Translations under genes and position numbers: made by a program
The notes under the pieces: model-generated
Seen by the model: the letters and a program-made list of their open reading frames with translations, nothing else
What the model was told of the DNA's origin: nothing
Database searches by the model: none
Assembly (NCBI GenBank): GCA_016223105.1
Contig: JACRPR010000083.1
Location: 32,724-96,723 of the forward strand
Length of the DNA stretch: 64,000 bases
Direction of reading: 5' to 3'
Origin: Chloroflexota bacterium
Lineage (GTDB): Bacteria; Chloroflexota; Anaerolineae; UBA4142
Shown: positions 4,830 through 23,025 of the stretch, one piece after another
How the letters are laid out: each line of letters begins with the position of its first letter
How positions within the stretch are numbered: the first letter of the stretch is position 1

Positions 4830-5729
4830 TTACTGCCGCGCTAGAAAAATTTCCACTTGCGCGCGCGTCGGCAACGAAGGTTGCGCGCCGAAACGCGTTA
4901 CGCTCAACGCGCCGACCGCGCAGGCGTACCGCACCGCGCCCGGTAAATCCTCGCCGCGCGCGAGCGCGACAGCCAACCCGCCGTTGAACGCATCGCCGGC
5001 GGCGGTCGTGTCCACCGCTTGCACGCGAAATCCTTCGATCACGCGCGACTCGTCCGGCGTCGCGAGCAACGCGCCGCGCGCGCCGAGCGTCATCACGACC
5101 GCGCGCGCGCCGAGCGCGAGCAAACGCGTCGCGGCGCGGGCGGGATCATCTTCGCCAGTGAGATGCGCGGCTTCGGTTTCGTTCGGCGTGAGCAAAACAT
5201 CGCGATACAATTCGCTCGGCAATTCGCGCGCGGGCGCGGGATTGAGAATGACGCGCGCGTTCGATTGACGCGCGAGATCAATCGCGGCGATCACGGTGTC
5301 GAGCGGAATTTCCAATTGCGCGAGCAAAACATCCGCCGCGCGGATCGCCGGTTCCGCGCGCGCAACATCGGCAGGCGTGAGTGTCGCGTTCGCGCCAGGC
5401 GCGACGCCGATCAAATTTTCCGCGCGCGCGTCCACCATAATCAACGCGACGCCGGACGCGGCGCGTTCATCGCGCGTGAGGTACGCGCAATCAATTCCGG
5501 CGGCGCGATAATTTTGCTCCGCCTGATCGCCCATCCAATCGCGACCGAGTCGCGCGACGAACGTAACCTCCGCGCCAAGTCGCGCCGCGGCGACGGCTTG
5601 GTTCGCGCCTTTGCCGCCCGCGGCAATCGCGAACTCGCCGCCGAGAATCGTTTCGCCGGCGCGCGGCAAACGTTCGCATTTCAAAATCATATCGGTATTC
5701 GCGCTACCGACGACGATGATGTTGTTCAT
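4830..5729 (-). CDS. rbsK: Ribokinase
   Basis: VVGSANTDM..GGKGANQAVAAARLG..DTTAAGDAFNGGLAVALA are classic PfkB/ribokinase motifs. Confidence 0.85.
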   Translation of the reverse strand: MNNIIVVGSANTDMILKCERLPRAGETILGGEFAIAAGGKGANQAVAAARLGAEVTFVARLGRDWMGDQAEQNYRAAGIDCAYLTRDERAASGVALIMVDARAENLIGVAPGANATLTPADVARAEPAIRAADVLLAQLEIPLDTVIAAIDLARQSNARVILNPAPARELPSELYRDVLLTPNETEAAHLTGEDDPARAATRLLALGARAVVMTLGARGALLATPDESRVIEGFRVQAVDTTAAGDAFNGGLAVALARGEDLPGAVRYACAVGALSVTRFGAQPSLPTRAQVEIFLARQ

Positions 5730-7264
5730 CGCGGCACCTCTTCGCCGAACGCGGGCGCGAGCATTTGATCCACCGGCGCGTACTGATCAGTGAGCGTTAC
5801 GCGGCGCACGTCCGCGAACATCGCGCGCAGATCGTCCTCGTTTACGATCAAGCGCGCGAGCAACGCGTCGCCATCGCCGCCGTCCGCGCGCGCGAGCGCG
5901 CTCAAATCCACCGGCACTTTCGATGCAAAGATCGTAAAGAAACTGCGCGGCTGTCTGCGCCAATCGCGATTGCCCATTCCCAAATACACGTACGGAAATG
6001 TTTGGCGCATCGTGTTGTAAAACGCGTTCACAAATTCGCCTTGCGGTCCGTCAATCAAATTCGCGATGTACATTCCATCGTCTTCAAGCCACGCGAACAC
6101 GCGGTCGTTAAATTCTTTCGTCGTCAAATGATACGGCACGGAATAGTGATTGATCGCATCGCCGCAAATCAAATCGTACCGCGTTGTCGGCGCGCGCACG
6201 AAAAATAATCGCGCGTCTTCGTTGTACGAAACGATCCTGGTATCGCGCTTGAGCGCGAGATGCTCGAACGTAAATTCGGTCAAGCCCGGATCAATCTCGA
6301 CGACGTGCGTCGCAATGTTGGGATAGACCGTTTCCAGATAACGCGGAAACGCGTAACCGCCGCCGCCGATGACCATCACGCGATTCAAGCGGTTGAAAAA
6401 TTGATCGCGATAGTCCGCGACTTCGGCAAATACTTTTTCTTGCGGATACTCGAGCAGTTTCGGATTCGCCGGCGAAATGTAACTGTGGACGAGATGATCG
6501 AGAACGACCGCGATCACTTGATCGCCGTTGCGTTCTTCGGTGAAAACTTTGATGCAAAAATAATTCGTCTCGCGCGCACACGGACCGCGCAACCAGCCCT
6601 GGTTTGAAATGGACGTCCACGCGCCAACGATCAACACGAGCGATAGCACCGCGGCGTACCAGCGCGCGCCCAGTACGAAAAACACGCCCATCAGCATCAA
6701 CGCGAGCGCGACCGCGAGAACAACAGTGAACGAGCCGAACCACGAGATCAGAAAAAAGCCGGTGGCGAACGTGCCGAGGATACTGCCGAACGCGCCCGCG
6801 GCATAAATTTTTCCGACCGTGCTTCCGGTTTTCGCGAGATCGCTCACCGCGAGTTTCGCGACGATGGGCGAAATCATTCCCAGGATCGTGCACGGTAGAA
6901 AAAATAATCCAAACGTGAGGATGACCAGTTTCGTTACAATCGGCAAATCGCGCGGAATCATTTGGTTGATCGGCTCCACCGCGAGAATCGTGAGACACGC
7001 AAGCGCGGAAAGCAAATAGATCGCGCCGAGAAAACGGAGCGATGCCCACTTGTCCGCGAGCCATCCACCCAAATAATTGCCGAGCATAATCCCGGCAAGC
7101 ACGATGCCGATAATGCTCGTCCAAGTGTAGAGCGATGTGCCGACGAGCGGCGCGATGATGCGGCTCGCGACGAGTTCGAGCACCATAATGCACGCGGACG
7201 AGATAAAAACAATCGCGTTCGGTTGCCACAGAATCGAACGCGCGGTGGAGGGCTGAGCGGACAT
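5726..7264 (-). CDS. Fused MFS-like membrane domain / spermidine-synthase-like methyltransferase-fold protein
   Basis: The N-terminal part has ~8 TM segments. The C-terminal part reads VMVIGGGGYAFPRYLETVYPNIATHVVEIDP. I chose the ATG at 7264, which has a GAGGAG RBS upstream, rather than the listed start at 7336. Confidence 0.7.
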   Translation of the reverse strand: MSAQPSTARSILWQPNAIVFISSACIMVLELVASRIIAPLVGTSLYTWTSIIGIVLAGIMLGNYLGGWLADKWASLRFLGAIYLLSALACLTILAVEPINQMIPRDLPIVTKLVILTFGLFFLPCTILGMISPIVAKLAVSDLAKTGSTVGKIYAAGAFGSILGTFATGFFLISWFGSFTVVLAVALALMLMGVFFVLGARWYAAVLSLVLIVGAWTSISNQGWLRGPCARETNYFCIKVFTEERNGDQVIAVVLDHLVHSYISPANPKLLEYPQEKVFAEVADYRDQFFNRLNRVMVIGGGGYAFPRYLETVYPNIATHVVEIDPGLTEFTFEHLALKRDTRIVSYNEDARLFFVRAPTTRYDLICGDAINHYSVPYHLTTKEFNDRVFAWLEDDGMYIANLIDGPQGEFVNAFYNTMRQTFPYVYLGMGNRDWRRQPRSFFTIFASKVPVDLSALARADGGDGDALLARLIVNEDDLRAMFADVRRVTLTDQYAPVDQMLAPAFGEEVPR

Positions 7265-7334
7265 TGCAAATTTTCTCCTCAAATGATTTTGGCGCGCTCC
7301 GATTATAACTATCGCGAGTTTGTTGGCAAGTGGC

Positions 7335-7373
7335 AAAAAGAAACCCGCAGGGTCTTGCAGACCCTGCGGGTTT
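7335..7373 (-). terminator. Rho-independent terminator candidate for the exosortase operon
   Basis: The minus strand has a perfect stem (aaacccgcagggtct gca agaccctgcgggttt) followed by tttcttttt. Confidence 0.6.
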
Positions 7374-7377
7374 GCGA

Positions 7378-7875
7378 TTAGATTTGCTCGACGCGAATTC
7401 TAGCGACCACGCGCAGAACTTCCGCAATCGGCACGAGTTTGCCGACGGTCGTGTACCGCGCGTCGCCGACCGGCGTGGTCGTCGCGCGTTCTTGGAACCG
7501 ATCACAGTTTTGCAAAAACCATTCGCGCGTTTCACGCACCGGCAAAATGTACAGCGTGCGCGGCGCGACGAAATAGTAAAACAACCAATCGGCTTGCGTG
7601 TACAGAAAACAGCCCGGCGTGTTGCGTTCGCGATTGCTCGCCGTCTCAAAGAAAAAGTTGCCGGTGCGATGATACCGATCCGCTTTGATTTCGATCTGGC
7701 GCGCGCCCTCGCGCGTGACCCAGATCAGATCAACATCCATTTTTTGATAACGCGGATCGGCTTCGACGTTTTCGACGCGAATCGTTTCCGCGCGATTCGT
7801 GAGCCACGCGATTATTTCGCGCGTCGCGTTGGCGGCGACGGCGTTCGTCGCGTCCATCGTGTACGCGCGCGGCAT
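7378..7875 (-). CDS. Hypothetical protein with a possible PD-(D/E)XK-like motif
   Basis: The ATG at 7873-7875 overlaps the TGA of the upstream gene (ATGA coupling). DVDLIWV...QIEIKAD resembles a nuclease-fold D..(D/E)xK signature, but this is weak. Confidence 0.45.
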   Translation of the reverse strand: MPRAYTMDATNAVAANATREIIAWLTNRAETIRVENVEADPRYQKMDVDLIWVTREGARQIEIKADRYHRTGNFFFETASNRERNTPGCFLYTQADWLFYYFVAPRTLYILPVRETREWFLQNCDRFQERATTTPVGDARYTTVGKLVPIAEVLRVVARIRVEQI

Positions 7876-10754
7876 CACGCGACTCCGCGCGCGGCAACGC
7901 GCGTTTTGTAGATGTACCCTAACGCAACCAACGCGAGCGCGATCAACAACCATTCGTGCGGTTCCGGCACCGCGGTTACATCGAGCGCGTTTTGTCCAAG
8001 CGTCTCGCCCACCTGTTCCACTTCGCGATCAAAGCGATCACCCTGTTGCTCAAGTTGTTTCAACAATTGGAGTTGTTGCGCGTTAACCAGGACGAGCATC
8101 GAAGAGAATGGCGTTACGATGCTGTGCTTGATCGCGATCGCGTGCAATTGATCGAGCGTCGTCAGCTGGCGCAGGTTGGCGCGATTGCGATACATCGCGT
8201 CGAGGATCACGCGGCGCGCGGCGAACGGCGCGAAATCATCATTCGTGATCGCACTTGACGATTTCACCCCGGAGGACGCGCCGGTGATCGTGAACCACGC
8301 GTAACCGTCCACCCAATCCACCGTCGCGTTTGCCGGGATGTCGCTCGACGCGATCGCTTTCGCGTTCAACGCGACCGCGACGCGATTGAGCGCGTCCTCG
8401 ACACTCGTCGTTACGCCGCCGCCACTCGCTTGAATCGCTTCGAGCGTCGCGTCATCGTAACCGAGCGGCAACGCGCCGCCGAGATGAATCATCCACACCG
8501 GCGCGTTCGGAATCGGCACCTTGACCGGACTCTCGCCGAGTTCGTAACCCGATCCATCGGTTACGACAAAAATCGCGTCGTACGAATCGTTCGCGCGCAA
8601 CGCGTCGAATTGCGCGAGCAGTTCGCCCGCGTGTTGTCCGCCGAGATATTCGATCCGATCCAGGTTGAGCGCATCCAACTTTGCGCGCGATGCTGGCTCG
8701 CCGCGATACTGGGACGCGGTGAGATACACATCCGCGTTGGCGAATTGGTCAAGTCGCGCCACAGTTGTCTTTACATCCGCCGCGAATTTTTGCATACTGA
8801 GCGAACGATCCAACACGACCGCGACGCGCAGATTGTCGCGCAACGCGGGCAGATTCAGCGCGGACAATGGACGCGCGATCACGGTTTCGCCGGTCACAAA
8901 TTCGATCTGATGCGCGACCTGGGTCGGCGGCGAGGTCGCGGGGATAGACGCGGGCAACCACGCGTCGGTTTGCAGTGCTTTGCCATTGAGGACGCGCGTC
9001 GTCGTCGCGTCCCAGTACACATTCCGTTTTTCCGCGAGACGCGGCAATGCCCACGCGTTATCGCGCGCCAGAACGCGATAGGTCAGCCACATGTGCATTC
9101 GCGCGGCGTCGGTGATCGTCGAGCGAAACGCGTTGGGATCGCGTCGAAACAAACGCGGCTCAATCGGAAAAATTCGCAGACGATATTGGCGCGGTCCGAT
9201 TTGCTCGACGAGCGCGGGGTCCACATTGCGGCGCACTTCGTTGCGATACACGGCTTGCGCCGCGCCGCGCGGCGCGACACGATACGCAAAGCGCGCGTTG
9301 CGATCATCGCTCGCGCCGAGCCACACGCCGGTAACGACCGCGGATTCCGGCAGTGAAAAATAGTACACCACTTCCTGGCGTTGCGTCGTTTGATTTTGAT
9401 AGACCTCATGCAATTCAACGTCCGCCCAATCACCGCGCTCGCTGATCGTGATCGCTTGATGCGTCAACAAAATTTCGTGATCATCCACCGCTTGCAGAGC
9501 GGCTTCGGCTTGCGATGCCGACCAGGTCGCGCGCACCGTGTTCGCGATGATTGTGCGCTCGCCGTCGAGGATGCGTTCATCGAACACGGCTTTGTACATT
9601 TTCGCGGCTTGCTCCGGTTCCTGACGTAACGCGCGACCATCTTCGCGATTGTCCGGCTTGGCAGGATTGATCGGTTCGTACAACAACGGACTTGCAACGG
9701 TTTCGTACAACGCTTGCACTTGGAGCGCGTCTGCGAGCGATAATTTCATTGACCACTTGTACATTTCGCCGATGTGTTTCACTTCACCGACCGCGCTGAT
9801 GTACCGGAATTGCGCGAGGTACGTGTTGAGCAATCCCGCGCGCAACGTGTCCGCTTGGCGCATCAGCGCGCGCCCGGCGTCCAATGTCGCGGGCGGAGTT
9901 TGCAAACGCGCGAACGCCTCGCGTTGCGGTTGTTGATTCGCGATGATGACCGCCGTAATCGAAATGAGTATCACCGACGCGACGAGCGCGTACGCGGGCA
10001 CTGCGCGCGTGCGATTGATCAACGCGCGCACGCCGCGCCACCACGCGCGCATCGCGAGAATCGGTACGGCGATTGGAGTGATCGCGAGCAATGTCGCGCT
10101 GTAACCGAACAAGAGACCGCTCAAAATCGAAAATGGCACTGCCCAGGTCAACGTCCAGAGCGCGCGCCAATCGAACGTCGTGATGAATCGCCAGAACGCG
10201 TTCGGCAATTCGATCACCACATTCACGATTTGCGCGGCGAGCGGCACCGCGTAAAACGCGATCCACGCGGAAGCGTACAAATAGGTGAGCAGGAGAAACG
10301 TCAAACCAATCGCGCGCGCCATCGCGAACGGCGCGCCGCGCTCATCAATTTTCGGATCGAGCAGTTGCCACATTAGCGTCGCCATTCCGATCAGCGCGAG
10401 CGTCATAATCAGCGCGACCGCCGGGTTTGCATCGCGAAACAAAAAGAAGCGCAAGCCGAGCATAAACATTAGGGGCCACTCGATGCCGTACGCGAGCGCG
10501 AATAATTTTTCCGGCGCGCGGCGCAGTGGAAAGATCGCGAGAAGGATCGCGGCGACCGGGATCAGCGTCAACGTGATGCCGGCTACGAGAAAGAGCGGCG
10601 GGACGATGTTCGTGGTAACGCCGGCGATCAAATCGGGAAGCATTTGCGGCGCGAATCCCAGGAGCATAAACGCGACAAAGATGAGATTCCACGTCCAGAA
10701 CAATCCGTACGCCCACACGCGCGGATCGAAAATAAATCGCAATACTTGTTTCAT
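7875..10754 (-). CDS. PEP-CTERM integral membrane protein with VIT-like and vWA domains
   Basis: The N-terminal ~340 aa are polytopic. A VIT-like segment follows (VVYYFSLPESAVVTGVWLG...DPALVEQIGPRQYRLRIFPIEP), then a vWA MIDAS motif (VAVVLDRSLSM). The C-terminus reads VPEPHEWLLIALALVALGYIYKTR, i.e. PEP + TM + basic. Confidence 0.75.
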   Translation of the reverse strand: MKQVLRFIFDPRVWAYGLFWTWNLIFVAFMLLGFAPQMLPDLIAGVTTNIVPPLFLVAGITLTLIPVAAILLAIFPLRRAPEKLFALAYGIEWPLMFMLGLRFFLFRDANPAVALIMTLALIGMATLMWQLLDPKIDERGAPFAMARAIGLTFLLLTYLYASAWIAFYAVPLAAQIVNVVIELPNAFWRFITTFDWRALWTLTWAVPFSILSGLLFGYSATLLAITPIAVPILAMRAWWRGVRALINRTRAVPAYALVASVILISITAVIIANQQPQREAFARLQTPPATLDAGRALMRQADTLRAGLLNTYLAQFRYISAVGEVKHIGEMYKWSMKLSLADALQVQALYETVASPLLYEPINPAKPDNREDGRALRQEPEQAAKMYKAVFDERILDGERTIIANTVRATWSASQAEAALQAVDDHEILLTHQAITISERGDWADVELHEVYQNQTTQRQEVVYYFSLPESAVVTGVWLGASDDRNARFAYRVAPRGAAQAVYRNEVRRNVDPALVEQIGPRQYRLRIFPIEPRLFRRDPNAFRSTITDAARMHMWLTYRVLARDNAWALPRLAEKRNVYWDATTTRVLNGKALQTDAWLPASIPATSPPTQVAHQIEFVTGETVIARPLSALNLPALRDNLRVAVVLDRSLSMQKFAADVKTTVARLDQFANADVYLTASQYRGEPASRAKLDALNLDRIEYLGGQHAGELLAQFDALRANDSYDAIFVVTDGSGYELGESPVKVPIPNAPVWMIHLGGALPLGYDDATLEAIQASGGGVTTSVEDALNRVAVALNAKAIASSDIPANATVDWVDGYAWFTITGASSGVKSSSAITNDDFAPFAARRVILDAMYRNRANLRQLTTLDQLHAIAIKHSIVTPFSSMLVLVNAQQLQLLKQLEQQGDRFDREVEQVGETLGQNALDVTAVPEPHEWLLIALALVALGYIYKTRVAARGVA

Positions 10755-10771
10755 CGTGCCTCCTTTGCACT

Positions 10772-10865
10772 GTCATTGCGAGGAGCATCGTGAGCGGAGT
10801 CGAACGATACGACGAAGCAATCTCCGATCTGAAAGTGGGGATTGCTTCGCTTTGCTCGCAATGAC
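10772..10865. repeat. MITE-like palindromic element (GTCATTGCGAG...CTCGCAATGAC family)
   Basis: The terminal inverted repeats are gtcattgcgag / ctcgcaatgac, with an internal gaagcaatc...gattgcttc pair. It sits between the exosortase stop and the start of its target gene. Confidence 0.8.
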
Positions 10866-10867
10866 AT

Positions 10868-12370
10868 TCATTTTTTGTTCAGATTGCGCGCAACCGCATC
10901 GCGCACCGCGCGGAAAAATGTTTGCAGTTCCAGCGTGTTCGGATCGCGCGCGTCGTTGAACAAAATCGAAACCAAGACCCAGCGTTTGGGCTGGAGCGTT
11001 ACATCATCCCAAATGCGCGTGCCGTAATCATCGGTTACGCGCTCCGCCGATTGAAACCAGTACGCCGCCGACCAGGTTTGTTGTTTGCGCGCATCGCCGA
11101 GCGCGACGCGAAGAACAGAAAAATCGGGCGCGACGAGAAAGGCGCGCGAGTCATTGATCGCGAGCCCGTACACTTCAAAGCATCGTTCGGGGCGATGATG
11201 CGCGCGCCAGGTCGCGCTCGTAACGAGAATCATCGAGCCGGACAGATCGCGCCAGGTGAAACGAAAGCGGTCGGCGCCTTCAGCATTATCGCGCATCAAC
11301 CAACGCAGTTCGTCCGGCTTGAGCGGCGCGGACTGCGCGATGATGTCGGCGGGAAACGTCCACGCAATTGTCGCCTGCGTCAACCCGGTTTGCGGGCGCG
11401 GCGTGTAGAGTAAACCCATCCCGAAAATTGCAACTATGAGAATCGCGCCAAGCCATGCGGAGTTGGAATTGAGATTGGAGATTGGAGCTTCGAGATTGAG
11501 CGATTGCGTCGGCAAGAGTCGCAACAACGCGACGGCGGCGGCGCACGCGATCACAAATCCCAAGACGCCGAGCGGAACGTGAATCATTTCCGCCGCGAGC
11601 CGCGCGTTCAACACTTGCCCGACGACGACCAGGATCGCGACGCGCGCGAGGTTCGTGATGAAAAGTAAAAGCGCAAACGCGATTGCGATCACGCACCAGC
11701 GCGCGTTGAGTGGTCGTCGTTCGATCCAGGTCGCGGCGATCAGAAACAGCGCGCCCGTCCACAAACTTTTGACGCCACTGCACGGCAGATCAATTTGCGA
11801 CACGCCATTTTCGAGAATCAAAATCGTGTCCACGCCAATCGAACCGATGCCCGCGAGCGCGAGCCCATCGCGCACGATGGACGCGGTGAGGATCCGCATG
11901 GGATAGCCGATGAACGTTTGCATATGTTCGCCGAACGGCAGAACGCCGACGATCAACAGTGCGGCGGGCAAACCCGCGCGCCAACGTTGCGGCGCGATCC
12001 ACAAACCGAGCAAGCCATAACTCGCGAGAAAAAAGATACTCGCGGAAATTGTGTTGATGTCGAGCCAGCGTTCGACGATGAGATACAAAATCGAACCGGC
12101 AAAAACCAGGATGAGCGCGGAGAGATGCCATCGAGGAAGCGCGTCGAATTTAAGCGACCATTTTTCTTTGCGCGCTTGCAACGCGATCAGAACGATCACG
12201 CCGACGAGGACGATTTGATTCGTGCGAAAATCTTCGTACGTGAAAATGATCGCGAGATAGGCGAACACGGCGCGATACAACCACAGCCACAATGCGAGGA
12301 TGAGCGCGTTCGCGGTGATGTGAGTTGCGCGAATCGAATTGGTTGGTGCGGAAGTTTCAAGCATTGCCAT
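10868..12370 (-). CDS. Exosortase fused to a C-terminal EpsI-like domain
   Basis: The polytopic N-terminal part carries an exosortase-type Cys motif (DLPCSGVKSLW). The C-terminal ~170 aa carry an EpsI-like HRPERCFEVYG motif. Confidence 0.75.
   Translation of the reverse strand: MAMLETSAPTNSIRATHITANALILALWLWLYRAVFAYLAIIFTYEDFRTNQIVLVGVIVLIALQARKEKWSLKFDALPRWHLSALILVFAGSILYLIVERWLDINTISASIFFLASYGLLGLWIAPQRWRAGLPAALLIVGVLPFGEHMQTFIGYPMRILTASIVRDGLALAGIGSIGVDTILILENGVSQIDLPCSGVKSLWTGALFLIAATWIERRPLNARWCVIAIAFALLLFITNLARVAILVVVGQVLNARLAAEMIHVPLGVLGFVIACAAAVALLRLLPTQSLNLEAPISNLNSNSAWLGAILIVAIFGMGLLYTPRPQTGLTQATIAWTFPADIIAQSAPLKPDELRWLMRDNAEGADRFRFTWRDLSGSMILVTSATWRAHHRPERCFEVYGLAINDSRAFLVAPDFSVLRVALGDARKQQTWSAAYWFQSAERVTDDYGTRIWDDVTLQPKRWVLVSILFNDARDPNTLELQTFFRAVRDAVARNLNKK
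11459..11500. repeat. AGATTGG-type heptamer run lying inside the exosortase CDS (linker)
   Basis: The run ggagttggaattgagattggagattggagcttcgagattgag is translated on the minus strand as LNLEAPISNLNSNS, between the exosortase and EpsI-like parts. Confidence 0.7.
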
Positions 12371-12423
12371 TTTCGATCATTATGCTAACGCTTTTGCGCG
12401 CACAAGTCAAGCACTCGGGTGCG

Positions 12424-12465
12424 AAAAAAAGAGACCTGGAAGGTTTGGAAAACCTTCCAGGTCTT
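12424..12465 (-). terminator. Rho-independent terminator candidate after the YCII-like gene
   Basis: The minus strand has a 14-bp perfect stem (agacctggaaggtt / aaccttccaggtct) followed by ttttttt. Confidence 0.65.
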
Positions 12466-12491
12466 GACATCGAAATCCAGCGGATACCACT

Positions 12492-12812
12492 TTACATCGC
12501 GTTGAATGTTTCGTACACAGTAATTTTTGCGCCGCCCAGAAAAACCGGGCAACTTTTGGCGAATTCAATCGCCGCGTTGAGCGAATCGGCTTTGATGACC
12601 GAGTATCCAGTTGCCATCGTGCCGACCGGACCGTCACTGACTTTGCCCTCTGCTGTGATGGTCTTGGCAGTTTGCGTAAACGGATTGCCTCCATCCACCA
12701 AATTGCTACCCAGTTTGCCCATCCACGCGCCCCAGTCTTGCATCACTTTATCTTTTTCCGCTTGGTTCGCGGGCATTCCACCACCGCTATAGAGTAACAC
12801 AAAATTTGCCAT
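12492..12812 (-). CDS. YCII-related (DGPF) domain protein
   Basis: MANFVLLYSGGG...GGNPF...GYSVIKADSLNAAIEFAKSCP. I chose the ATG at 12812 because it has a GGAGAA RBS. The listed 28-codon upstream extension is unsupported. Confidence 0.7.
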   Translation of the reverse strand: MANFVLLYSGGGMPANQAEKDKVMQDWGAWMGKLGSNLVDGGNPFTQTAKTITAEGKVSDGPVGTMATGYSVIKADSLNAAIEFAKSCPVFLGGAKITVYETFNAM

Positions 12813-13026
12813 CGTTTGTTCTCCTTCCAAAGTTTCTTGGAGTTGAGAAATCTTGACGCGCTCAAGAATCTGATCCAAGTGAATTGAGCATATCACAAAA
12901 GTTTCAATTTTGTATTAGAGCCAACCCTGCCAAGTATCAATTCTTTATTTGAAAATTCGCGTTGGTTTCGACACGAAAAGTTGTGCGGAAAAAAAGACGG
13001 CAGTCAACTTAATGACTGCCGTTGGA

Positions 13027-13040
13027 TGTGTCGGGGCGAG
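13027..13040. repeat. Degenerate third copy of the tRNA-Pro att core
   Basis: tgtg--tcggggcgag compares with the att core tgtgagtcggggcgag. It lies at the left edge of the low-G+C tract. Confidence 0.3.
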
Positions 13041-13149
13041 CTGATCTGGATTTGATAGTTTGCTGATCATGGTTTGTGAGATATTGAGTTAGCTCCAGTT
13101 GGGACAAATGGACTTGAAGATACCTCACTGGTATTCCTCGATCAAGCAT

Positions 13150-14076
13150 TTAGAAAGGGACGTCTTCGTCGATTTTGGAAGGTTGGGGTGGGGCAAATTC
13201 AATATTGATCCGAAATCGGTAATCATGGTATCGCGTTGGAGTATGCAGTCGCAATCGATACTGCAAGCCGCCATCAAACCAGCCTTCTTGAAATTCAAAA
13301 TGGATCTTGGCAAACTCAACAGCACTAGGAGGGAGACTGGGGACTTTGATTTCCAACCGATACTGTCTCACCAAACCATCTTCCGCATCAATTGCACTTG
13401 CCTTGAAGGATTCGATATTTCCCATAGGTCCTGAATGTATCGGGATATAAAGCGCATCTTCTGAAGTGAAAAGATACACATGGGTTATTCCACCTGCTAC
13501 TTCCAGGCTATCGTTCCTTATATGAATGGGCAAAACGAACCGTTTCGTCTTTATCGTTCCAGTTATTGTGGGATTTTCCCCTTCGGAGCCGATCTCTGGT
13601 ATCGCTTTCTCTAGGATCGTCACTGACAAGTGTTCGGAGGTTAGTGCCACTTTTCGGGCACGCGATTCTTCAATCGCCCATTGCAAAGTTGTAGCCAGTT
13701 CTTTTCTAAGTGTCTCTATCTTTCCAGCATAAACTGTGTGTTGTCTATGTTTCAGGTCAAATGGAATGTCATCAGCATTCTGCGTCAGAAGGAGAACGAG
13801 TTTTCCCAGCGCGTGAGCGTAACCAACCTCATAGAACACATTGGGATTCCTACCCGTCATATCAGCTACAATAACATCGGCTTTGTTGATCTGATTGAAT
13901 ATTCTGTCTAGTATTCCTTCAGAGAACTTTTGCTCATCTACGCGTTCCGCATATGCTCCAACATCATCCGCTGCGCCTTTGATGCCAAACTGGTAGATGT
14001 CGTTAAACTTAGAGTCAAATGGCATCAGTACGAAAACGATAGGTTTAGGACGAGTAGATTTCGAAATGTCAGCCAT
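13150..14076 (-). CDS. Nucleoside 2-deoxyribosyltransferase-like / TIR-like Rossmannoid domain protein with an unknown beta-rich C-terminal domain
   Basis: The N-terminal part reads IVFVLMPFDSKFNDIY...ADVIVADMTGRNPNVFYEVGYAHALGKLVLLL, i.e. an MPF..., NxNV.YE.G.A.A.GK pattern. The C-terminal ~160 aa have no motif I recognise. The gene is low in G+C. Confidence 0.45.
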   Translation of the reverse strand: MADISKSTRPKPIVFVLMPFDSKFNDIYQFGIKGAADDVGAYAERVDEQKFSEGILDRIFNQINKADVIVADMTGRNPNVFYEVGYAHALGKLVLLLTQNADDIPFDLKHRQHTVYAGKIETLRKELATTLQWAIEESRARKVALTSEHLSVTILEKAIPEIGSEGENPTITGTIKTKRFVLPIHIRNDSLEVAGGITHVYLFTSEDALYIPIHSGPMGNIESFKASAIDAEDGLVRQYRLEIKVPSLPPSAVEFAKIHFEFQEGWFDGGLQYRLRLHTPTRYHDYRFRINIEFAPPQPSKIDEDVPF

Positions 14077-14318
14077 TGTAGTGCCTTTTCAAATTGAGCA
14101 TCTGAGTTGTTTGATTCATCATGATTGACACGTAAATTTGCAGATGGACCCTGTGCTGATGAAAAACACGCTGATCACACCAATACCATTTTTTATTTGT
14201 CTTCCCACTTTCGCGAGTAAGTGTGTTCCAATCTATTTCTTGTTCCCGATTTTCTTTTAACCGCAGACTCTACATTGCAGAAAACCCGCAGAATCTTTGC
14301 GTCTGATTCTACGGGTAT

Positions 14319-14344
14319 TGTGAGTCGGGGCGAGAGGACTTGAA
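14319..14344. repeat. att site (left), a 26-bp direct repeat of the tRNA-Pro 3' end
   Basis: tgtgagtcggggcgagaggacttgaa is identical to 24450-24475. Confidence 0.9.
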
Positions 14345-14426
14345 AAAGGTCTTTTTTTTGGATGACCCATTTTGAACCAGGTCGAGTCAACGGTAAGGAA
14401 TGACATCTGTTTTGGTTGACCTCGTA

Positions 14427-15308
14427 TCATTCACCTGGCATGTTGTCCAAAAACGAAAGTTGCTTGTAGGTTTGTCGGATTCGCTCGAGCGACGTGGACA
14501 CGTAAATCATTGTGGTTGTGATATCTTCGTGACCCAGGAGCGTTTGCAAGTCGTGAATGTTTCCACCACGATCAAGATAGTTTGTTGCGAAGGTGTGCCG
14601 AAGCGCGTGAGTGCTGACATTTACGCCGGCGGTTTTTGCGACACGCTTGATGATTTTGTAGATCGCGGGTGCGTTCATTGGCTTGCCGTGTCGTGATGTG
14701 AATAGGGCTGTTACTCCTGGTTGTGCTCTTCGTTCGTTTATCCACTTTTCAAGTTCCTTGGTTGTCTTCTTCGCGAAAATCACCCATCTCTCTTTATCAC
14801 CCTTTCCGTGTTTGACGTGTGCCATTCCTCGCACAAGGTCTAGGTCATCAATTTCGAGTTGTGCGACTTCTCCGCGTCTCATTCCAGAGTCTAGGATGAG
14901 AAAAATGATTGCGCGATCGCGTGTAGCGGTTTCTGCCGAAATGAGTTTGTGAATTTGGTCGGGTGGTAAGCATTTCGGTAGTTTGTGTGGCTTCTTGGGG
15001 ATAATAAATCCAATGTTGGGATTGTCGGTGACGATTCCTGTTTCGTGAATCCATCGTGCGAAGGTTCTGATCGTCTTGGCTCTCTGCCGTATCGTTGTTG
15101 GCGAGAGTTTTTTTTCGCAATCGCGCAGGTGACTGACATATTCATTCAAGATTTTTGATGTGACGATCTCGATGTTGGTACTGTGATGTTTTTCAAGCCA
15201 TCGAGCGAGTAGTGAAAGTTGGCGTGAGTAGGTTTTGATCGCGTTAGGGTTGCATTCGCGTTTTTCTCGATTGTTCAAAAAGTTTTGAATGACGGCGAAG
15301 ATTTCCAA
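14427..15308 (-). CDS. Tyrosine recombinase / phage integrase
   Basis: Has an N-terminal SAM-like core-binding region. The catalytic motifs are ...DSGMRRGE..., HALRHTFATNYL and LLGHEDITTTMIY. The start is TTG with a GAGGA RBS. Confidence 0.9.
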   Translation of the reverse strand: MEIFAVIQNFLNNREKRECNPNAIKTYSRQLSLLARWLEKHHSTNIEIVTSKILNEYVSHLRDCEKKLSPTTIRQRAKTIRTFARWIHETGIVTDNPNIGFIIPKKPHKLPKCLPPDQIHKLISAETATRDRAIIFLILDSGMRRGEVAQLEIDDLDLVRGMAHVKHGKGDKERWVIFAKKTTKELEKWINERRAQPGVTALFTSRHGKPMNAPAIYKIIKRVAKTAGVNVSTHALRHTFATNYLDRGGNIHDLQTLLGHEDITTTMIYVSTSLERIRQTYKQLSFLDNMPGE

Positions 15309-15374
15309 GTGTGATCCTCGATTGAATGATGGGTGATTGTGCCCACATTATATCAAATTTCTGGAGGTGGTTCG

Positions 15375-15686
15375 ATGCAAGTGTCGGGTTTGATTATGAA
15401 GAGTCGCTCGTCTGCGTACCCAAACAAAAAGACTGGTGAGTTGATCCACATGGTCTATTTTGATTTGTATGACGACACGGCGGGTCTGATTCAGTGTGAA
15501 ATTAAGGCGAATGGCGCGGAGCCGCCGGATGGTTCGAAGGTTGTCGGCGATGTGCAGTTCCTGCGCAAGATCGCGTTTGGTCAAGGTGTGTCGGTCGCGC
15601 TCAAGTCGTTTCGTGTGCTCGATGTCAAATCGGATGCGCCGGGTTGGGTGCCGCCGCTTCCGCCGGGTGTGGGTCCGAAAAAGTAG
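15375..15686 (+). CDS. Hypothetical 103-aa protein (ssDNA-binding protein by position only)
   Basis: ATG with a GGAGGTG RBS. It is the first gene of the plus-strand module and is small, soluble and beta-rich in appearance, with a Pro-rich tail. I recognised no motif. Confidence 0.4.
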   Translation: MQVSGLIMKSRSSAYPNKKTGELIHMVYFDLYDDTAGLIQCEIKANGAEPPDGSKVVGDVQFLRKIAFGQGVSVALKSFRVLDVKSDAPGWVPPLPPGVGPKK

Positions 15687-15689
15687 AAA

Positions 15690-16004
15690 ATGTTTCCAAG
15701 TTCTGTGCTGACCGGGACACTTGTAAGCGCGTTGGGTGATCAATCATCTTTTGCGCTTTACTATACGGTCCCGACGAGCGGTTTGCTTGCGGCAACGTTG
15801 GGTATGTTGCTCATTCTCACGTTGTTCATTATTGCGAATCGTTTGCAAATGTGGGCAATTCTGTATTCGATTATCTTGGCGATGTTCTTCGTTCCGTTTG
15901 CGACAACGGCGTATGCGCCTTCTGTGGTGGTTATGTGTTTGATCGCGCTGGTTGTTGTCCTGGTTGGTCGGTTCTTCGTCAAGGTGCTGGGCTGGGGGAC
16001 GTGA
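15690..16004 (+). CDS. Small integral membrane protein (3-4 TM)
   Basis: 104 aa, very hydrophobic, tightly packed with its neighbours. Confidence 0.5.
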   Translation: MFPSSVLTGTLVSALGDQSSFALYYTVPTSGLLAATLGMLLILTLFIIANRLQMWAILYSIILAMFFVPFATTAYAPSVVVMCLIALVVVLVGRFFVKVLGWGT

Positions 16005-16159
16005 TGACGCTTCCAAATTGGACGTTTAACGAAGTGATGATTGAAGTCACGAACTTTTTGCAAAATTCGGTTGTGGCTGGTTTGGTGATGACATCGCTTG
16101 CGTTGTCGGTCGTCAGTTTGCTCGTTTCGACTTTGCAAAACATTTTTCGGCGTCAGTAG
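16004..16159 (+). CDS. Small single-TM protein (51 aa), coat-protein-like layout
   Basis: The ATG overlaps the upstream TGA (GTGATGA). The sequence is MTLPNWTFNEVMIEVTNFLQNSVVAGLVMTSLALSVVSLLVSTLQNIFRRQ: an acidic N-terminus, a hydrophobic core and a basic C-terminus. It is below the ORF-track cutoff as a separate ORF. Confidence 0.45.
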   Translation: MTLPNWTFNEVMIEVTNFLQNSVVAGLVMTSLALSVVSLLVSTLQNIFRRQ

Positions 16160-16213
16160 TTGGCGGGTTCGTGCCGCTTTCTATAAATCTGATATCGAAG
16201 GGAGGTGAGAACA

Positions 16214-16378
16214 ATGTTTGGTACCGGCTTTTCGCTCGGATTCACGATTTCGGATATTCAAACTCAAGTTTCGATGTTGCTCGCGAATGCGGTCGTGCTT
16301 GGTCTGGTCGCTGGTTCGTTGGCGCTGACGATCACTCCACGGATTATCGGTGTTGTGAAGGGCATGTGGCGGCACTAG
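16214..16378 (+). CDS. Small single-TM protein (54 aa), major-coat-protein-like layout
   Basis: Not in the ORF track (<60 aa). It has a strong RBS (GGGAGGTGAGAACA-ATG). The sequence is MFGTGFSLGFTISDIQTQVSMLLANAVVLGLVAGSLALTITPRIIGVVKGMWRH. Confidence 0.5.
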   Translation: MFGTGFSLGFTISDIQTQVSMLLANAVVLGLVAGSLALTITPRIIGVVKGMWRH

Positions 16379-16449
16379 GCGCGATTCGCGCGATTTTCTG
16401 ATTGTCTGGGGGTTCGTTGTTTGAATCCCCAGATTTACGAGGTGTAGAC

Positions 16450-16605
16450 GTGGCGGCTCCCACTCTTCCCAGTTTGTGGACTGATGTTTTGACCCAACTG
16501 AATACGTTCCTGGCTTGGGATGTCGTCAAGGGTTATATCGTGTTATCTCTTGGCATGTCGTTTGGTGCTTTGGCTCTCCGCATGCTGGGTCGCGCGGTTC
16601 GGTAA
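16450..16605 (+). CDS. Small single-TM protein (51 aa), paralog of 16651-16836
   Basis: GTG start with a GAGGTG RBS. It shares the FLAWDVVKGYIVLSLG...RMLGRAVR pattern with the next gene. Confidence 0.45.
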   Translation: MAAPTLPSLWTDVLTQLNTFLAWDVVKGYIVLSLGMSFGALALRMLGRAVR

Positions 16606-16650
16606 TTTGTGGGGCGGTCTTTGATCGCCCTACATTTGTTGAGGTGATAG

Positions 16651-16836
16651 ATGATTCCATTTCAAGGTTTGTTTGGTGCAGGTGCGTTTCAGTGGGAAGC
16701 TGGTTATGGATTATCTGGTGTGTTTAACATGCTTTCCGCTATTTTGGCATGGGATGTTGTGCGTGGTTCGTTGGTTTTTATTCTCACGCTGGCGTTGGTT
16801 GGTCAGGTGATTTCGATGATGCGAGGTGTTAGATGA
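16651..16836 (+). CDS. Small single-TM protein (61 aa), paralog of 16450-16605
   Basis: ATG with a GAGGTG RBS. It contains ILAWDVVRGSLVFILTLALVGQVISMMRGVR. Confidence 0.5.
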   Translation: MIPFQGLFGAGAFQWEAGYGLSGVFNMLSAILAWDVVRGSLVFILTLALVGQVISMMRGVR

Positions 16837-17081
16837 ATTGGAATGCAATGCTGTTTGATCCAACTGTTTTTACTGATCATCTCAAGACCTGGTTTGCCGC
16901 GTTGTTGGGTGTCTATAATGCCGGTGGTAATGGTATGTTGACACCTTATATTTTGTTTTCTATCGCCTTGATGATTGCTGGCTCGATCCTGGTTACATTT
17001 CGTCGAGCAACTTCTGGCAAATCGGATTTGGCTCAACCGCAACAGCAACAGCAAAAACAGAATCAATGGCGAGGTGATTGA
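16833..17081 (+). CDS. Small membrane protein with a Q-rich C-terminus
   Basis: 82 aa. Its start overlaps the upstream stop (ATGA). It has one or two TM segments and a QPQQQQQKQNQ tail. Confidence 0.5.
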   Translation: MNWNAMLFDPTVFTDHLKTWFAALLGVYNAGGNGMLTPYILFSIALMIAGSILVTFRRATSGKSDLAQPQQQQQKQNQWRGD

Positions 17082-18223
17082 TGCGGATCGCACTATTTTC
17101 GTGTCTAGTTTGCCTGGTGCTCGCGGTGGTGTGGTTTGCTGTGCCTGGTGTTGGGGCACAAGGTATTTATCCGTTCAATGGCGAGTTTGATTATGGTTTG
17201 TCTGGTTGGACCACTTACAGTTCTACTCTGACTTCATCTTATTGTTATACGGGGCAGTGCGTATACTTTCCTCAGTTGTATTCTTCATTGTTTTCAAATC
17301 CGTTTATTGTTGGCAATGGTAGTCTTGTTTTGTGGGGTCGTGCTGTTTCATCGACACTCAATGTTCATATTTATGCAATTGATTTTTCAAATTCTGCGTT
17401 GCCTCAATATTACATAACTACTACAGTTTTCAGTTCCTCTGGATTGGTTAAGGCAATTCCTGTTCCGTCGGCGATTGTTGATCACGCGATTCAATTGCTC
17501 TTTGTGATTTATGATTCTTCATCTGGTGCTGGTTCGTTGGATCATATTTATTTGACGTCTGCAATTGGGTATGGTTTTCCCTATGGCGCAAATACTCCAA
17601 TTCCGATCAATTGGTCTGGCTATCCTACTCCTGTCCCTTATCCGACATTTCCTGCATTCCCAACCGCGATTTCAAATGTCAACAACACGACGAATAACAC
17701 GACGAACAACACGACGAACAATAACACGTACGGTGGTATCTCCGGCGCGACGATCAACGTGACTGGTGGTCTCACGTTGAATATGACACCTTTTCCGTAC
17801 GGTGCTGGTACTCCAATGCCGATCTACGATGCGTCCACGCGGACGCCAACGCCTACGCCGGTGTCGCAAGCTCAAGCGGCTCAACGTTTGGCATGGTCGT
17901 CTGCTCCTGGCACTCCTCAATTCTATATTAATCCGTCTTCGCCGGCGTCTGCGGGTGATTTGTCGTTGGGTGCTGGGACAAATTCGGCGAGTCCGTTTGA
18001 CTTGGTGATGACTGAAGAACTTTTGAATTATGATTTCAAGTTTTCTGATTTGGGTTACCCTTACACCACGATCACCTTTGGCTTACCTGATTGGCATTTC
18101 ATTGTTCATTACAAGTATCCGACAAAATTTATTTTTGCGGGTGAAGATTTGTTGAATCAGGTTTATGCGATTATGGGTTTGTTCTACTTCGCGACGTGCT
18201 TGACGGTTATTCGTAAAGGATGA
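17078..18223 (+). CDS. Secreted, C-terminally anchored protein with a low-complexity NNTT linker (pIII/adsorption-protein-like architecture)
   Basis: Signal peptide: MMRIALFSCLVCLVLAVVWFAVPGVGAQG. Linker: NVNNTTNNTTNNTTNNNT. C-terminal hydrophobic anchor: VYAIMGLFYFATCLTVIRKG. Confidence 0.55.
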   Translation: MMRIALFSCLVCLVLAVVWFAVPGVGAQGIYPFNGEFDYGLSGWTTYSSTLTSSYCYTGQCVYFPQLYSSLFSNPFIVGNGSLVLWGRAVSSTLNVHIYAIDFSNSALPQYYITTTVFSSSGLVKAIPVPSAIVDHAIQLLFVIYDSSSGAGSLDHIYLTSAIGYGFPYGANTPIPINWSGYPTPVPYPTFPAFPTAISNVNNTTNNTTNNTTNNNTYGGISGATINVTGGLTLNMTPFPYGAGTPMPIYDASTRTPTPTPVSQAQAAQRLAWSSAPGTPQFYINPSSPASAGDLSLGAGTNSASPFDLVMTEELLNYDFKFSDLGYPYTTITFGLPDWHFIVHYKYPTKFIFAGEDLLNQVYAIMGLFYFATCLTVIRKG

Positions 18224-18227
18224 TTCG

Positions 18228-18365
18228 ATGACTCCTCTCGAGATCACAGTTTACTTTCCTGCTCCGCCGAATGTGTTTTACGCATTTGTCCTTTTGACTT
18301 CGGTGATGACGATTGTCTGGGTTGCCAAATTTGTGATTCGTCTTGTAACCGGCTTTTCCTCATGA
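18228..18365 (+). CDS. Small TM protein (45 aa)
   Basis: Not in the ORF track. The sequence is MTPLEITVYFPAPPNVFYAFVLLTSVMTIVWVAKFVIRLVTGFSS. It lies 5 nt after the upstream stop. Confidence 0.35.
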   Translation: MTPLEITVYFPAPPNVFYAFVLLTSVMTIVWVAKFVIRLVTGFSS

Positions 18366-18481
18366 ACTCGCCCGGCTTTTTCTATTCTAATCTCATAGCA
18401 AGTGGGATTGTTGGTATGTTCTGTTTTCTGATTTGTTTCAATATTGTCGAGGTGATCTCAAACGATGTTCCTCGCCGCTGA
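18362..18481 (+). CDS. Small TM protein (39 aa)
   Basis: Not in the ORF track. The sequence is MNSPGFFYSNLIASGIVGMFCFLICFNIVEVISNDVPRR. It overlaps both neighbours by a few nt. Confidence 0.3.
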   Translation: MNSPGFFYSNLIASGIVGMFCFLICFNIVEVISNDVPRR

Positions 18482-20052: not shown

Positions 20053-20056
20053 TCGT

Positions 20057-20112
20057 GGGGGCGGCGGTCGGCGGGCGGGGACCCCTCTGGGGTGCCCGAC
20101 GACCGCGCCCCC
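20057..20112 (+). other. GC-rich imperfect hairpin in the intergenic region upstream of rep (packaging signal / origin / terminator candidate)
   Basis: The arms gggggcggcggtcggcgggc...gcccgacgaccgcgccccc enclose a ggggacccctctggggt tip. A second 10-bp-stem hairpin lies at 20156-20188. Confidence 0.5.
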
Positions 20113-20202
20113 TTGGTACTATATGCGAAATTTGCGTCCACTTTGGTCAGTGCTTTTTTCGTGTCTTCGGTCGAGGATGACACGAAAATAGTCTAATCGA
20201 AG

Positions 20203-21282: not shown

Positions 21283-21611
21283 ATGTTGCGGATCGCTTTT
21301 GGGCGAAGGTGACCAGGTCTGCCGATTGTTGGTTGTGGCAATCAGAACGCGACGAAAAGGGCTATGGTCGGTTTCTGTATCTTGGTCGCAAAATGAATGC
21401 ACATCGGGTTGCGTGGTTGGTCACATTCGGCGAGATTAAACCTGGTTTGCAAGTGTGCCACAAGTGCGACAATTCATCGTGTGTAAATCCAGCGCATCTT
21501 TTTCTCGGCACGGTGCAAGACAATTTCAATGATGCGGTCCTTAAGCATCGGCGGTATTCACGATACCTGGTTGGAGTGATGCCAGGTCAAATCAGAATGG
21601 AGGGCTTATGA
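21273..21611 (+). CDS. HNH endonuclease (HNH_3-type)
   Basis: Contains GYGRF...AHRVAW...[24 protein letters not shown]. Confidence 0.75.
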
Positions 21612-21991: not shown

Positions 21992-22041
21992 TCGGCGAGC
22001 GTCTACAGCGTTTCTGCGGGGCAAAACGGTTTTCGAGTCCT

Positions 22042-23024: not shown

Positions 23025-23025
23025 T

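Follow-up and report, generated by a model that had tools for sequence, protein, structure and literature searches.

A probable dedicated exosortase O and TIGR02921 enzyme-target cassette in a Chloroflexota bacterium

On the minus strand of the 64-kb stretch of Chloroflexota DNA analysed here (the window, meaning that whole stretch) an exosortase gene is followed by a gene for a large membrane protein with a PEP-CTERM-like tail and by a short third gene. This arrangement raises the question of whether the genes form a dedicated sorting system, which of the three belong to it, and whether such a system is already known. The original prediction had described three minus-strand ORFs, and we found all of them at their given positions together with every motif quoted for them. 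Our answer, which we hold at a probability of roughly 0.88, is that the locus is a two-gene XrtO/TIGR02921 cassette of Chloroflexota (Anaerolineae-type), a dedicated enzyme-target pair already curated by NCBIfam/TIGRFAMs. The parts of the locus, in the direction of reading, are as follows.

12382..12410, minus strand: promoter-like site (TTGACT, 17 nt, TAGCAT) 5' of the exosortase gene; 9/12 in a consensus scan, a consensus match only
10868..12370, minus strand: exosortase O (XrtO), 500 aa; 392 bits with NCBIfam TIGR04489 (cutoff 250)
10771..10866, minus strand: palindromic repeat element that takes up the 113-nt spacer separating enzyme and target genes; folds as RNA at -48.7 kcal/mol (z = -4.8)
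7875..10754, minus strand: TIGR02921 family PEP-CTERM integral membrane protein (the target), 959 aa; 673 bits with the NCBIfam model (cutoff 200)
7378..7878, minus strand: gene 3, predicted PD-(D/E)xK nuclease-fold protein, 165/166 aa; AlphaFold model and Foldseek
7341..7373, minus strand: intrinsic terminator hairpin after gene 3, 15-bp stem with 9 GC pairs, then CTTTTTGCC; ends the transcription unit

The exosortase identity proposed for the first gene is borne out by HMM searches. The TIGR04489 alignment spans the full model length (XrtO residues 29-478 against profile positions 2-451 of 451), and the second-best exosortase model, XrtT, reaches 65 bits, with a weak match to XrtN at 48 bits. 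The broader exosortase/archaeosortase signature TIGR04178 matches residues 192-287 with 44.2 bits (cutoff 23), and Pfam Exosortase_EpsH (PF09721) matches with an E value of 8e-25. Two domains can be delimited in the protein.

11516..12298, minus strand: exosortase catalytic membrane core, residues 25-285; extent of the PF09721 match
10910..11401, minus strand: EpsI-like C-terminal extracytoplasmic domain, residues ~324-487; family-level homology

The motif DLPCSGVKSLW in the core includes Cys197 (codon 11780-11782). Among 40 members of the XrtO family C197, R243 and H264 never vary and at least 90% keep R284, and from sequence conservation and analogy we infer that Cys197, Arg243, His264 and Arg284 are candidate catalytic residues. 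An extra membrane helix (residues 305-323) precedes the C-terminal domain, which contains the motif HRPERCFEVYG at residues 392-402. When searched directly, the window XrtO gave a weak match to the NCBIfam model EpsI_type_V (E 0.017) and no match to Pfam EpsI models at E <= 10. Its relatives are more telling, with PF11984/DUF3485 matched by 21 of the 40 family members and, from the HRPERC motif onward, by P0164, a protein 62% identical to the window XrtO over its full length that scores 26.4 against a gathering score of 26.1. The fusion to an EpsI-like domain that had been predicted is thus probable, by transitive homology through these relatives.

The gene downstream of the spacer has a ribosome-binding site read from the sequence (AAGGAGG, 6 nt 5' of the ATG) and encodes a protein that covers positions 9-918 of the 922 positions of the TIGR02921 profile. 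Scores as high as those of the XrtO and TIGR02921 models lie far outside what chance would give. NCBI nr already holds the identical protein (P0241) under the name 'TIGR02921 family PEP-CTERM protein'. Its AlphaFold model (pLDDT 83.5), the profile searches and hydropathy together divide it into four parts.

9939..10754, minus strand: polytopic membrane domain with seven helices at the N-terminus, residues 1-272; AlphaFold model and agreeing hydropathy scan
8865..9473, minus strand: VIT-type beta-sandwich domain, residues ~428-630; Pfam VIT, E 1.3e-10 at 436-534
8055..8831, minus strand: divergent vWA-like alpha/beta domain, residues ~642-900; predicted structure
7878..7970, minus strand: PEP-CTERM sorting signal, VPEP at 929-932, helix 936-954 and tail KTRVAARGVA; motif and hydropathy

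The modelled N-terminal helices lie at residues 11-47, 53-74, 81-105, 111-132, 141-193, 205-249 and 251-272. A transmembrane part of ~340 aa had been proposed; the N-terminus is polytopic as stated, but its size comes down to about 272 aa, and residues 277-424 are helical without being hydrophobic in both the model and the hydropathy scan. Because the loops 75-82 and 233-253 are rich in Arg and Lys and the N-terminus is basic, the positive-inside rule suggests that the N-terminus lies inside and the ectodomain outside.

Within the ectodomain the VIT domain is well supported, being matched in all 45 of the target relatives examined and modelled with beta strands from residue 428 to 629. The vWA call required structure prediction, because sequence searches gave no vWA match: Pfam and NCBIfam models run on the last 375 aa (E <= 10) returned no vWA in the target itself, and the PDB returned none either by phmmer with the target or through the family profile. 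Foldseek ranks inter-alpha-inhibitor heavy chain 1 (6fpy; E 8e-12 over ~630 columns) first among the structural matches to the model, and VWA_2 was matched weakly in 9 of the 45 relatives. The MIDAS-like DRSLS occupies residues 649-653 (8796-8810) and is the sole DxSxS in the protein; D649, S651, S653, T732 and D733 are invariant in 45 target sequences. The structural model places in the ectodomain a probable divergent vWA domain with a putative MIDAS-type metal site, and of the VIT and vWA pairing originally proposed around DRSLS the first half stands by Pfam and the second is made likely by predicted structure and the weak matches of relatives, but not by models applied to the protein's own sequence.

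The proposed VPEP-TM-KTR sorting signal is present as described. Several NCBIfam PEP-CTERM family models match the target tail with E values from 2e-5 to 0.02, and V929, P930, E931, P932, E934, W935, L936 and L937 are invariant in the 45 sequences, while the linker at 914-934 is modelled with low confidence or as disordered. The generic Pfam PEP-CTERM model PF07589 had no match on the target at E <= 1 and matched 3 of the 45 relatives; such poor reach of the general Pfam model is common for so short a motif.

Given these assignments, the locus does not differ in any essential respect from the exosortase O (TIGR04489) and TIGR02921 'PEP_integral' system, with which it shares both families, the gene order and the adjacency. 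The exosortase O family description pairs XrtO with the adjacent TIGR02921 protein. The pairing is already known, being catalogued and named in public databases, and the remark in the original prediction that integral-membrane PEP-CTERM families paired with specific exosortases had been catalogued proves apt for this very locus. An integral-membrane PEP-CTERM family, an exception among PEP-CTERM proteins, and EpsH-EpsI fusions were noted by Haft et al. 2006 (PMC1569441).

The pair is also kept together outside the window. The XrtO and target genes adjoin in each of the nine distinct related loci examined in Chloroflexota, with XrtO immediately 5' of the target in L001-L006, L010/L011 and L012/L013 and present as a remnant in L009, and at least 20 XrtO/target pairs across both homologue lists agree in the length of their longest contig, so that the two members very likely lie on the same contigs. 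The closest relative, L012, aligns with the window by blastn in a single stretch of 4558 nt at 89.5% identity (window 12424-7872); the homology comprises exactly the two genes and ends at the target stop codon, with unrelated flanks. Since one enzyme gene and one target gene adjoin in nine contexts whose flanks are otherwise unrelated, these observations support a conserved cassette of the kind that a dedicated system would show, in keeping with the dedicated type of arrangement that had been proposed from the enzyme's position next to an integral-membrane target. Chloroflexota, where the system occurs here, lies beyond the classical Gram-negative setting of PEP-CTERM proteins. L009, which comes from an Anaerolineae assembly of 4.87 Mb, has an intact target and an adjoining XrtO reduced to residues 258-498, a remnant that lacks the catalytic Cys region; a target can thus be kept where no intact enzyme gene adjoins it, provided that no further copy exists elsewhere in the genome.

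Several other systems resemble this one in part. The XrtN system with its VIT-domain target (TIGR04476/TIGR04477) and the MSEP-CTERM protein of Bacteroidota (TIGR04286) have target models that share the VIT region with the window target, and TIGR04477 also shares its C-terminal part; these partial matches have E values of 1.8e-13 and 5e-5. However, the window scores far below the cutoffs of both families (49.6 against 250 and 21 against 150), and their sorting motifs and lineages differ. The Gram-negative sortase TIGR03784 likewise lies beside its only target, the 'marine proteobacterial sortase target' TIGR03788 with VIT and vWA domains (PMC3237569), which matches the window target weakly in the VIT region (E 3.7e-7). 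That pair differs in having a sortase fold rather than an exosortase and LPXTG rather than PEP-CTERM, and the TIGR03788 model, at 629 positions, is far shorter than the target. TIGR03788 members are not known to have a polytopic N-terminal domain. More broadly, dedicated sorting systems have been described, and VIT/vWA proteins recur as targets of sortase, rhombosortase and exosortase (PMC3237569; bioRxiv 10.1101/2023.06.07.544157).

For the chemistry, the best experimental model of what XrtO may do is ArtA of Haloferax volcanii, which acts on PGF-CTERM substrates, belongs to a homologous superfamily (shared TIGR04178) and reads a similar tripartite signal. Mutagenesis showed Cys173, Arg214 and Arg253 of ArtA to be critical (PMC9263693), a Cys/Arg/Arg spacing that the XrtO residues resemble, and ArtA cleavage is coupled to lipid attachment (PMC9263693; bioRxiv 10.1101/2023.06.07.544157). 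The analogy has its bounds, in that ArtA is archaeal, has many substrates and another motif and carries no EpsI-like domain, and any lipid attachment of exosortase O targets would be an extrapolation from it.

A full-text literature search on the two families, by name and by model identifier, returned irrelevant matches and no paper on the system. Cleavage, cleavage site, acceptor and biological role are therefore inferred, with analogy to ArtA and XrtA as the guide to cleavage and transfer. On this basis, the target would insert through its seven N-terminal helices and one C-terminal helix, with an ectodomain of ~660 residues (helical region, VIT and vWA with MIDAS) held outside the membrane at both ends. 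XrtO would be a polytopic cysteine protease/transpeptidase, with Cys197, Arg243 and either Arg284 or His264 as candidates and the EpsI-like domain on the extracytoplasmic side, that recognises the VPEP, helix and basic tail, cuts at or near VPEP and removes the C-terminal helix. It may then move the new target C-terminus to an acceptor such as a lipid, the wall or an exopolymer. Because the N-terminal membrane domain remains, processing would mature or re-tether the target rather than release it.

The same retained domain leaves room for a different account, in which the PEP-CTERM-like tail is a second anchor that is never cleaved and XrtO and the target form a stable membrane complex, for example in polymer export or adhesion. 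Seven helices would keep the target membrane-bound whether it is cleaved or not, the case for cleavage is one of analogy, and L009 has an intact target next to an enzyme remnant devoid of the Cys region. We nevertheless regard this account as quite improbable: the invariance of VPEP and of E-W-L-L across 45 sequences, behind a linker that is variable and disordered, is a typical pattern of protease recognition, and the invariant Cys, Arg and His of XrtO argue for retained catalysis.

In another account, XrtO would be a general exosortase for many PEP-CTERM proteins and the adjacent polytopic protein one substrate among them or an accessory membrane component. XrtA, XrtB and many others do act on tens of targets (PMC1569441; PMC3237569), and the genome data used here comprise 64 kb, with other PEP-CTERM genes possible elsewhere. 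Against this, strict one enzyme/one target adjacency in nine independent contexts is the signature of dedicated systems, a regex scan of the 64-kb window finds one PEP-CTERM-like tail, and the homologue searches return similar counts for the two families, with 1017 matches for XrtO (many already named 'exosortase O') and 1295 for the TIGR02921 target. We therefore consider a general exosortase very unlikely and retain the dedicated pair.

The YCII-like gene upstream ends in a strong terminator hairpin (12464-12432), just downstream of which lies the promoter-like site of the exosortase gene. Beyond the terminator that follows gene 3, the next gene has a strong promoter-like site of its own (7329-7302) that matches at 11/12 positions. 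No comparably strong terminator-like hairpin was found inside the three-gene unit, where internal stems have 5-6 pairs against the 15-pair stems on both flanks. Given a promoter-like site at the 5' end, strong flanking terminators and no comparable hairpin between the genes, the three genes look like one transcription unit as judged from sequence signals. The MFS/spermidine synthase gene at 5726-7336 was considered as a fourth component and rejected, since it lies beyond the strong terminator, has its own promoter-like site and is missing from all related loci.

Two features set the window apart from related exosortase O loci, namely the palindromic repeat in the spacer and the nuclease-fold gene added at the 3' end of the transcription unit. 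The repeat arm GTCATTGCGAG recurs in the window at 40056, at 50932 and, in two copies inverted to each other, at 63041/63104, and in relatives the enzyme-target junction is a 4-nt overlap, a 10-nt gap or a different spacer. A role for the repeat as a system-specific regulatory RNA is unlikely, because the arm recurs elsewhere in the window and the spacer of the closest relative differs.

Gene 3 has a maximal ORF of 7378-7953 on the minus strand (191 aa), with the real start lower. The junction with the target gene reads GTGATG. Translation from the GTG would give 166 aa and share 4 nt (GTGA) with the target gene, and translation from the ATG would give 165 aa and share 1 nt; the NCBI product has 159 aa. 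Of the translationally coupled 166-aa gene in the original prediction, the overlap of stop and start remains, and so does the length if GTG is the start, but ATGA gives way to GTGATG. Sequence models say little of the product: no Pfam, NCBIfam or PADLOC match was obtained, the family profile found none in the PDB, and the one PHROG match, to phrog_13596, is weak and has no assigned function. A DUF4365 label carried by one UniRef record for a homologue was set aside, as Pfam does not confirm it for that protein. The AlphaFold model (pLDDT 91) is more informative, with I-Ssp6803I (E 4.9e-4), PrfA/RecU, DpnI and Hjc as top Foldseek matches at TM-scores of 0.3-0.5. The residues D47, D49, E62 and K64 are invariant in the family, and neither a signal peptide nor a membrane helix was found. 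The product is accordingly modelled as a PD-(D/E)xK nuclease-fold protein, predicted to be of cytoplasmic type.

A three-component system, with the 165-aa gene 3 protein as regulator or accessory factor of XrtO and its target in this lineage, is highly improbable despite the overlapping start and stop, the lack of a terminator before gene 3 and the strong one after it, and a GC content (0.578) that matches the neighbours. Gene 3 is missing from each of the eight related loci in which sequence 3' of the target is retained; in L012, where homology stops at the target stop codon, a toxin-antitoxin pair takes its place. Homologues number about 400 at 55-65% identity, many of them in cyanobacteria, where the family is widespread, and their contexts are unrelated; the closest (65% identity) stands alone, with a metallo-beta-lactamase-fold gene on one side and an unknown gene on the other. 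The predicted nuclease fold, with neither export signal nor membrane helix, points to a cytoplasmic, DNA-directed activity. Because it is missing from related loci, has homologues in unrelated contexts elsewhere and adopts a fold of cytoplasmic type, gene 3 is an unrelated neighbour and no part of the exosortase system, predicted co-transcription notwithstanding. It sits in a variable region 3' of the cassette and would share the transcript in this genome only, and the 'third gene' of the original prediction should not be carried forward as a component of the exosortase O system.

Returning to the two-gene cassette, the structural match of its target ectodomain suggests a further, bolder idea. 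ITIH1 has the same order of VIT then vWA, and ITIH heavy chains undergo a cut close to the C-terminus and form an ester bond with glycosaminoglycan. ITIH1 (PDB 6fpy) is the best structural match, yet at ~10% identity and TM-scores of 0.24-0.35, and it is eukaryotic and soluble, and the enzyme that processes it is unrelated, which makes any functional analogy to the target speculative. An ITIH1-like ectodomain, the invariant VPEP and catalytic residues and the retained N-terminal anchor are compatible with a covalent transfer by XrtO of the new C-terminus of the VIT-vWA ectodomain onto an envelope polymer or lipid, a tentative and rather unlikely reading that draws on this analogy and on the lipidation of ArtA substrates. 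If it were true, the target would be a membrane-to-envelope tether in Chloroflexota, fixed in the membrane by its seven helices and bound at its far end to wall, sheath or exopolymer.

Collectively, the locus is a well-delimited example of a catalogued system and no new discovery. Exosortase chemistry could conveniently be studied on a single substrate in such a system, given the predicted polytopic VIT-vWA protein with its two anchors and a cysteine transpeptidase-like enzyme of its own.

The three minus-strand ORFs described in the original prediction are all present, and every motif it quoted was found in the encoded proteins. ORF calls, together with a consensus scan for promoters, gave the following layout:

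12464-12432: terminator hairpin (15 bp) belonging to the upstream gene
12410-12382, minus strand: promoter-like site before the exosortase gene (consensus scan)
10868-12370, minus strand: ORF of the 500-aa enzyme, exosortase O (XrtO)
7875-10754, minus strand: ORF of the 959-aa target protein
ending at 7378, minus strand: small ORF, gene 3
7373-7341: terminator directly 3' of gene 3, as strong as the upstream one

Given the promoter-like site and flanking terminators, between which we observed no terminator-like hairpin of comparable strength, XrtO, the target and gene 3 probably form one transcription unit. The predicted ATGA coupling was not borne out; the junction between target and gene 3 instead reads GTC GCG TGA TG, which leaves gene 3 two candidate starts: a GTG, giving a 4-nt GTGA overlap and 166 aa, or an ATG that has one base in common with the target stop codon, giving 165 aa.

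The 500-aa protein is exosortase O, scoring 392 bits end to end against NCBIfam TIGR04489 (curated cutoff 250), with all other NCBIfam exosortase subtype models at or below 65 bits; the protein also matched Pfam Exosortase_EpsH and the exosortase/archaeosortase signature model. When aligning 40 family members, we observed that Cys197 (in DLPCSG), Arg243 and His264 are invariant and that Arg284 is conserved in at least 90%. The Cys-Arg-Arg spacing is similar to that of Cys173/Arg214/Arg253 in archaeosortase ArtA, residues found critical by mutagenesis (PMC9263693), and the suspected triad of the superfamily is Cys, Arg and His (bioRxiv 10.1101/2023.06.07.544157).

After residue 324, the window XrtO showed no Pfam match even at E <= 10, and its sole NCBIfam signal was a weak EpsI_type_V match (E 0.017). 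PF11984/DUF3485, annotated as a domain of unknown function and here taken to be the EpsI family model, was matched by 21 of the 40 XrtO family members. The homologue P0164, 62% identical to the window XrtO over its full length, exceeded the PF11984 gathering score (26.4 vs 26.1) with a match starting exactly at the HRPERC motif; the proposed EpsI fusion is thus supported by transitive homology. The EpsI-like domain is a fixed part of the XrtO model and not peculiar to this locus, and EpsH-EpsI fusions were already described in 2006 (PMC1569441).

The 959-aa target matched the NCBIfam 'PEP_integral' family TIGR02921 at 673 bits (cutoff 200), with partial, sub-threshold matches to other sorted VIT proteins (XrtN target, MSEP-CTERM and marine sortase target). 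An identical sequence in nr is named 'TIGR02921 family PEP-CTERM protein [Chloroflexi bacterium]' (118.5-kb contig), and homologues carry the JGI name 'putative PEP-CTERM system integral membrane protein'. An AlphaFold model built with 45 homologues as input (pLDDT 83.5, pTM 0.79) predicted the following regions:

residues 1-272: seven membrane helices
residues 277-424: helical region
residues 428-630: beta-sandwich enclosing the Pfam VIT match
residues 642-900: alpha/beta domain
residues 914-934: disordered linker bearing VPEP
residues 932-958: final helix

The basic N-terminus and basic loops 75-82 and 233-253 fit a topology in which the N-terminus would lie inside and the ectodomain outside. 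The model's best structural match was inter-alpha-inhibitor heavy chain 1 (E 8e-12, about 630 columns), itself a VIT-vWA protein. The family alignment shows no variation at D649, S651, S653, T732 and D733 or in the V929-P-E-P and E934-W-L-L segments. The vWA domain claimed earlier is supported by the predicted fold and the DxSxS motif but not by sequence models, none of which detects such a domain in the target itself; VWA_2 matches among its relatives were weak and confined to 9 of 45. The vWA call therefore rests on modelled fold and motif.

We then compared related loci: scanning a single genome for each species gave six relatives, all Chloroflexota/Anaerolineae MAGs, and further homologue look-ups added five more loci. 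Every one of them has XrtO immediately 5' of the target, except that XrtO is incomplete in L009. At several junctions the two genes overlap by 4 nt or stand about 10 nt apart; nothing beyond these two genes was conserved across the neighbourhoods compared. The sharpest evidence for the pair as a conserved unit is the closest relative, L012, whose XrtO is 89% identical to that of the window. Blastn returned one 4558-nt alignment at 89.5% identity (window 12424-7872), which begins 54 nt before the XrtO start and ends at the target stop codon, with unrelated flanks on both sides. This confinement, together with the recurrent adjacency, supports a dedicated enzyme-target pair. In L009 (CP070818.1, Anaerolineae, 4.87 Mb), an XrtO remnant at 7245-8004 adjoins an intact TIGR02921 gene; its 252-aa ORF retains residues 258-498 (last helices and EpsI-like domain), while an opposite-strand PLD-like gene replaces the catalytic Cys region. 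Two readings fit L009: a system in decay, or a split arrangement reminiscent of stand-alone EpsI.

Gene 3, by contrast, was absent from every related XrtO locus compared, and its nearest homologue (65% identity) occurs on its own among unrelated genes. We therefore reject it as a system component, and with it the three-gene system originally proposed, and conclude that gene 3 is a passenger occupying a variable position 3' of the cassette. Different small accessory genes follow TIGR02921 in L012 (MNT/HEPN-type toxin-antitoxin pair, 12662-13514), L010 (SHOCT-domain gene directly 3', 11166-11543) and the window (gene 3), suggesting that the cassette's 3' end is a recurrent insertion spot. Gene 3 had no Pfam, NCBIfam or PADLOC match and one weak PHROG match of unknown function. 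Its roughly 400 homologues (55-65% identity) include Chloroflexota and many cyanobacterial proteins (Phormidium, Moorena, Laspinema, a Nostoc plasmid), with invariant residues including D47, D49, E62, K64, N73, E77, S80, N81 and C89. That these proteins are so well conserved between phyla and occur in varied contexts suggests a mobile gene that stands alone. The AlphaFold model (pLDDT 91) predicts a PD-(D/E)xK nuclease fold, with homing endonuclease I-Ssp6803I, the PrfA/RecU and Hjc resolvases, and DpnI as best structural matches.

The surroundings contain further features:

12400-24500: low-GC island directly upstream of the XrtO promoter (GC 0.477 vs about 0.58 in the flanks)
13150-14076: TIR / nucleoside-deoxyribosyltransferase-like protein (PADLOC TIR effector, E 2.9e-11)
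14427-15308: tyrosine integrase
20203-21282: Rep_1 / phrog_11698 replication protein
10771-10866: palindromic repeat in the XrtO-target spacer, arms GTCATTGCGAG...CTCGCAATGAC
5726-7336: fused MFS-like membrane domain / spermidine synthase-like gene (NF037959, E 6e-114)

The island, which has strong positive GC skew, negative AT skew and several ORFs without family match, is probably an integrated mobile element with a defence-type gene. The spacer repeat is predicted to fold into a highly stable hairpin (-48.7 kcal/mol, z -4.8) and recurs as a full inverted pair at 63041-63114 and as lone arms at 40056 and 50932, with one arm also in L012 (351-379); it resembles a small dispersed element of the REP/MITE type. 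The MFS/spermidine synthase gene, immediately downstream of gene 3, lies behind the 7373-7341 terminator with its own promoter-like site (7329-7302, 11/12 positions matched) and had no counterpart near XrtO in the relatives compared.

By every feature testable, the window locus belongs to the XrtO/TIGR02921 pairing, a system already catalogued in NCBIfam, and a regex scan of the 64-kb window found no PEP-CTERM-like tail besides that of the target. Dedicated one-to-one sorting systems are a published concept, and VIT/vWA proteins recur as targets of dedicated sortase, rhombosortase and exosortase (both PMC3237569; bioRxiv 10.1101/2023.06.07.544157). By analogy with ArtA and XrtA, from which we infer the mechanism for this family, XrtO would recognise the target's VPEP-helix-basic tail, cleave it via Cys197 and may transfer the resulting C-terminus to another acceptor. 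The predicted MIDAS site suggests metal-dependent ligand binding. Because the seven-helix N-terminal domain would remain in the membrane after tail cleavage, such processing would leave the VIT-vWA ectodomain matured or re-tethered, not secreted.
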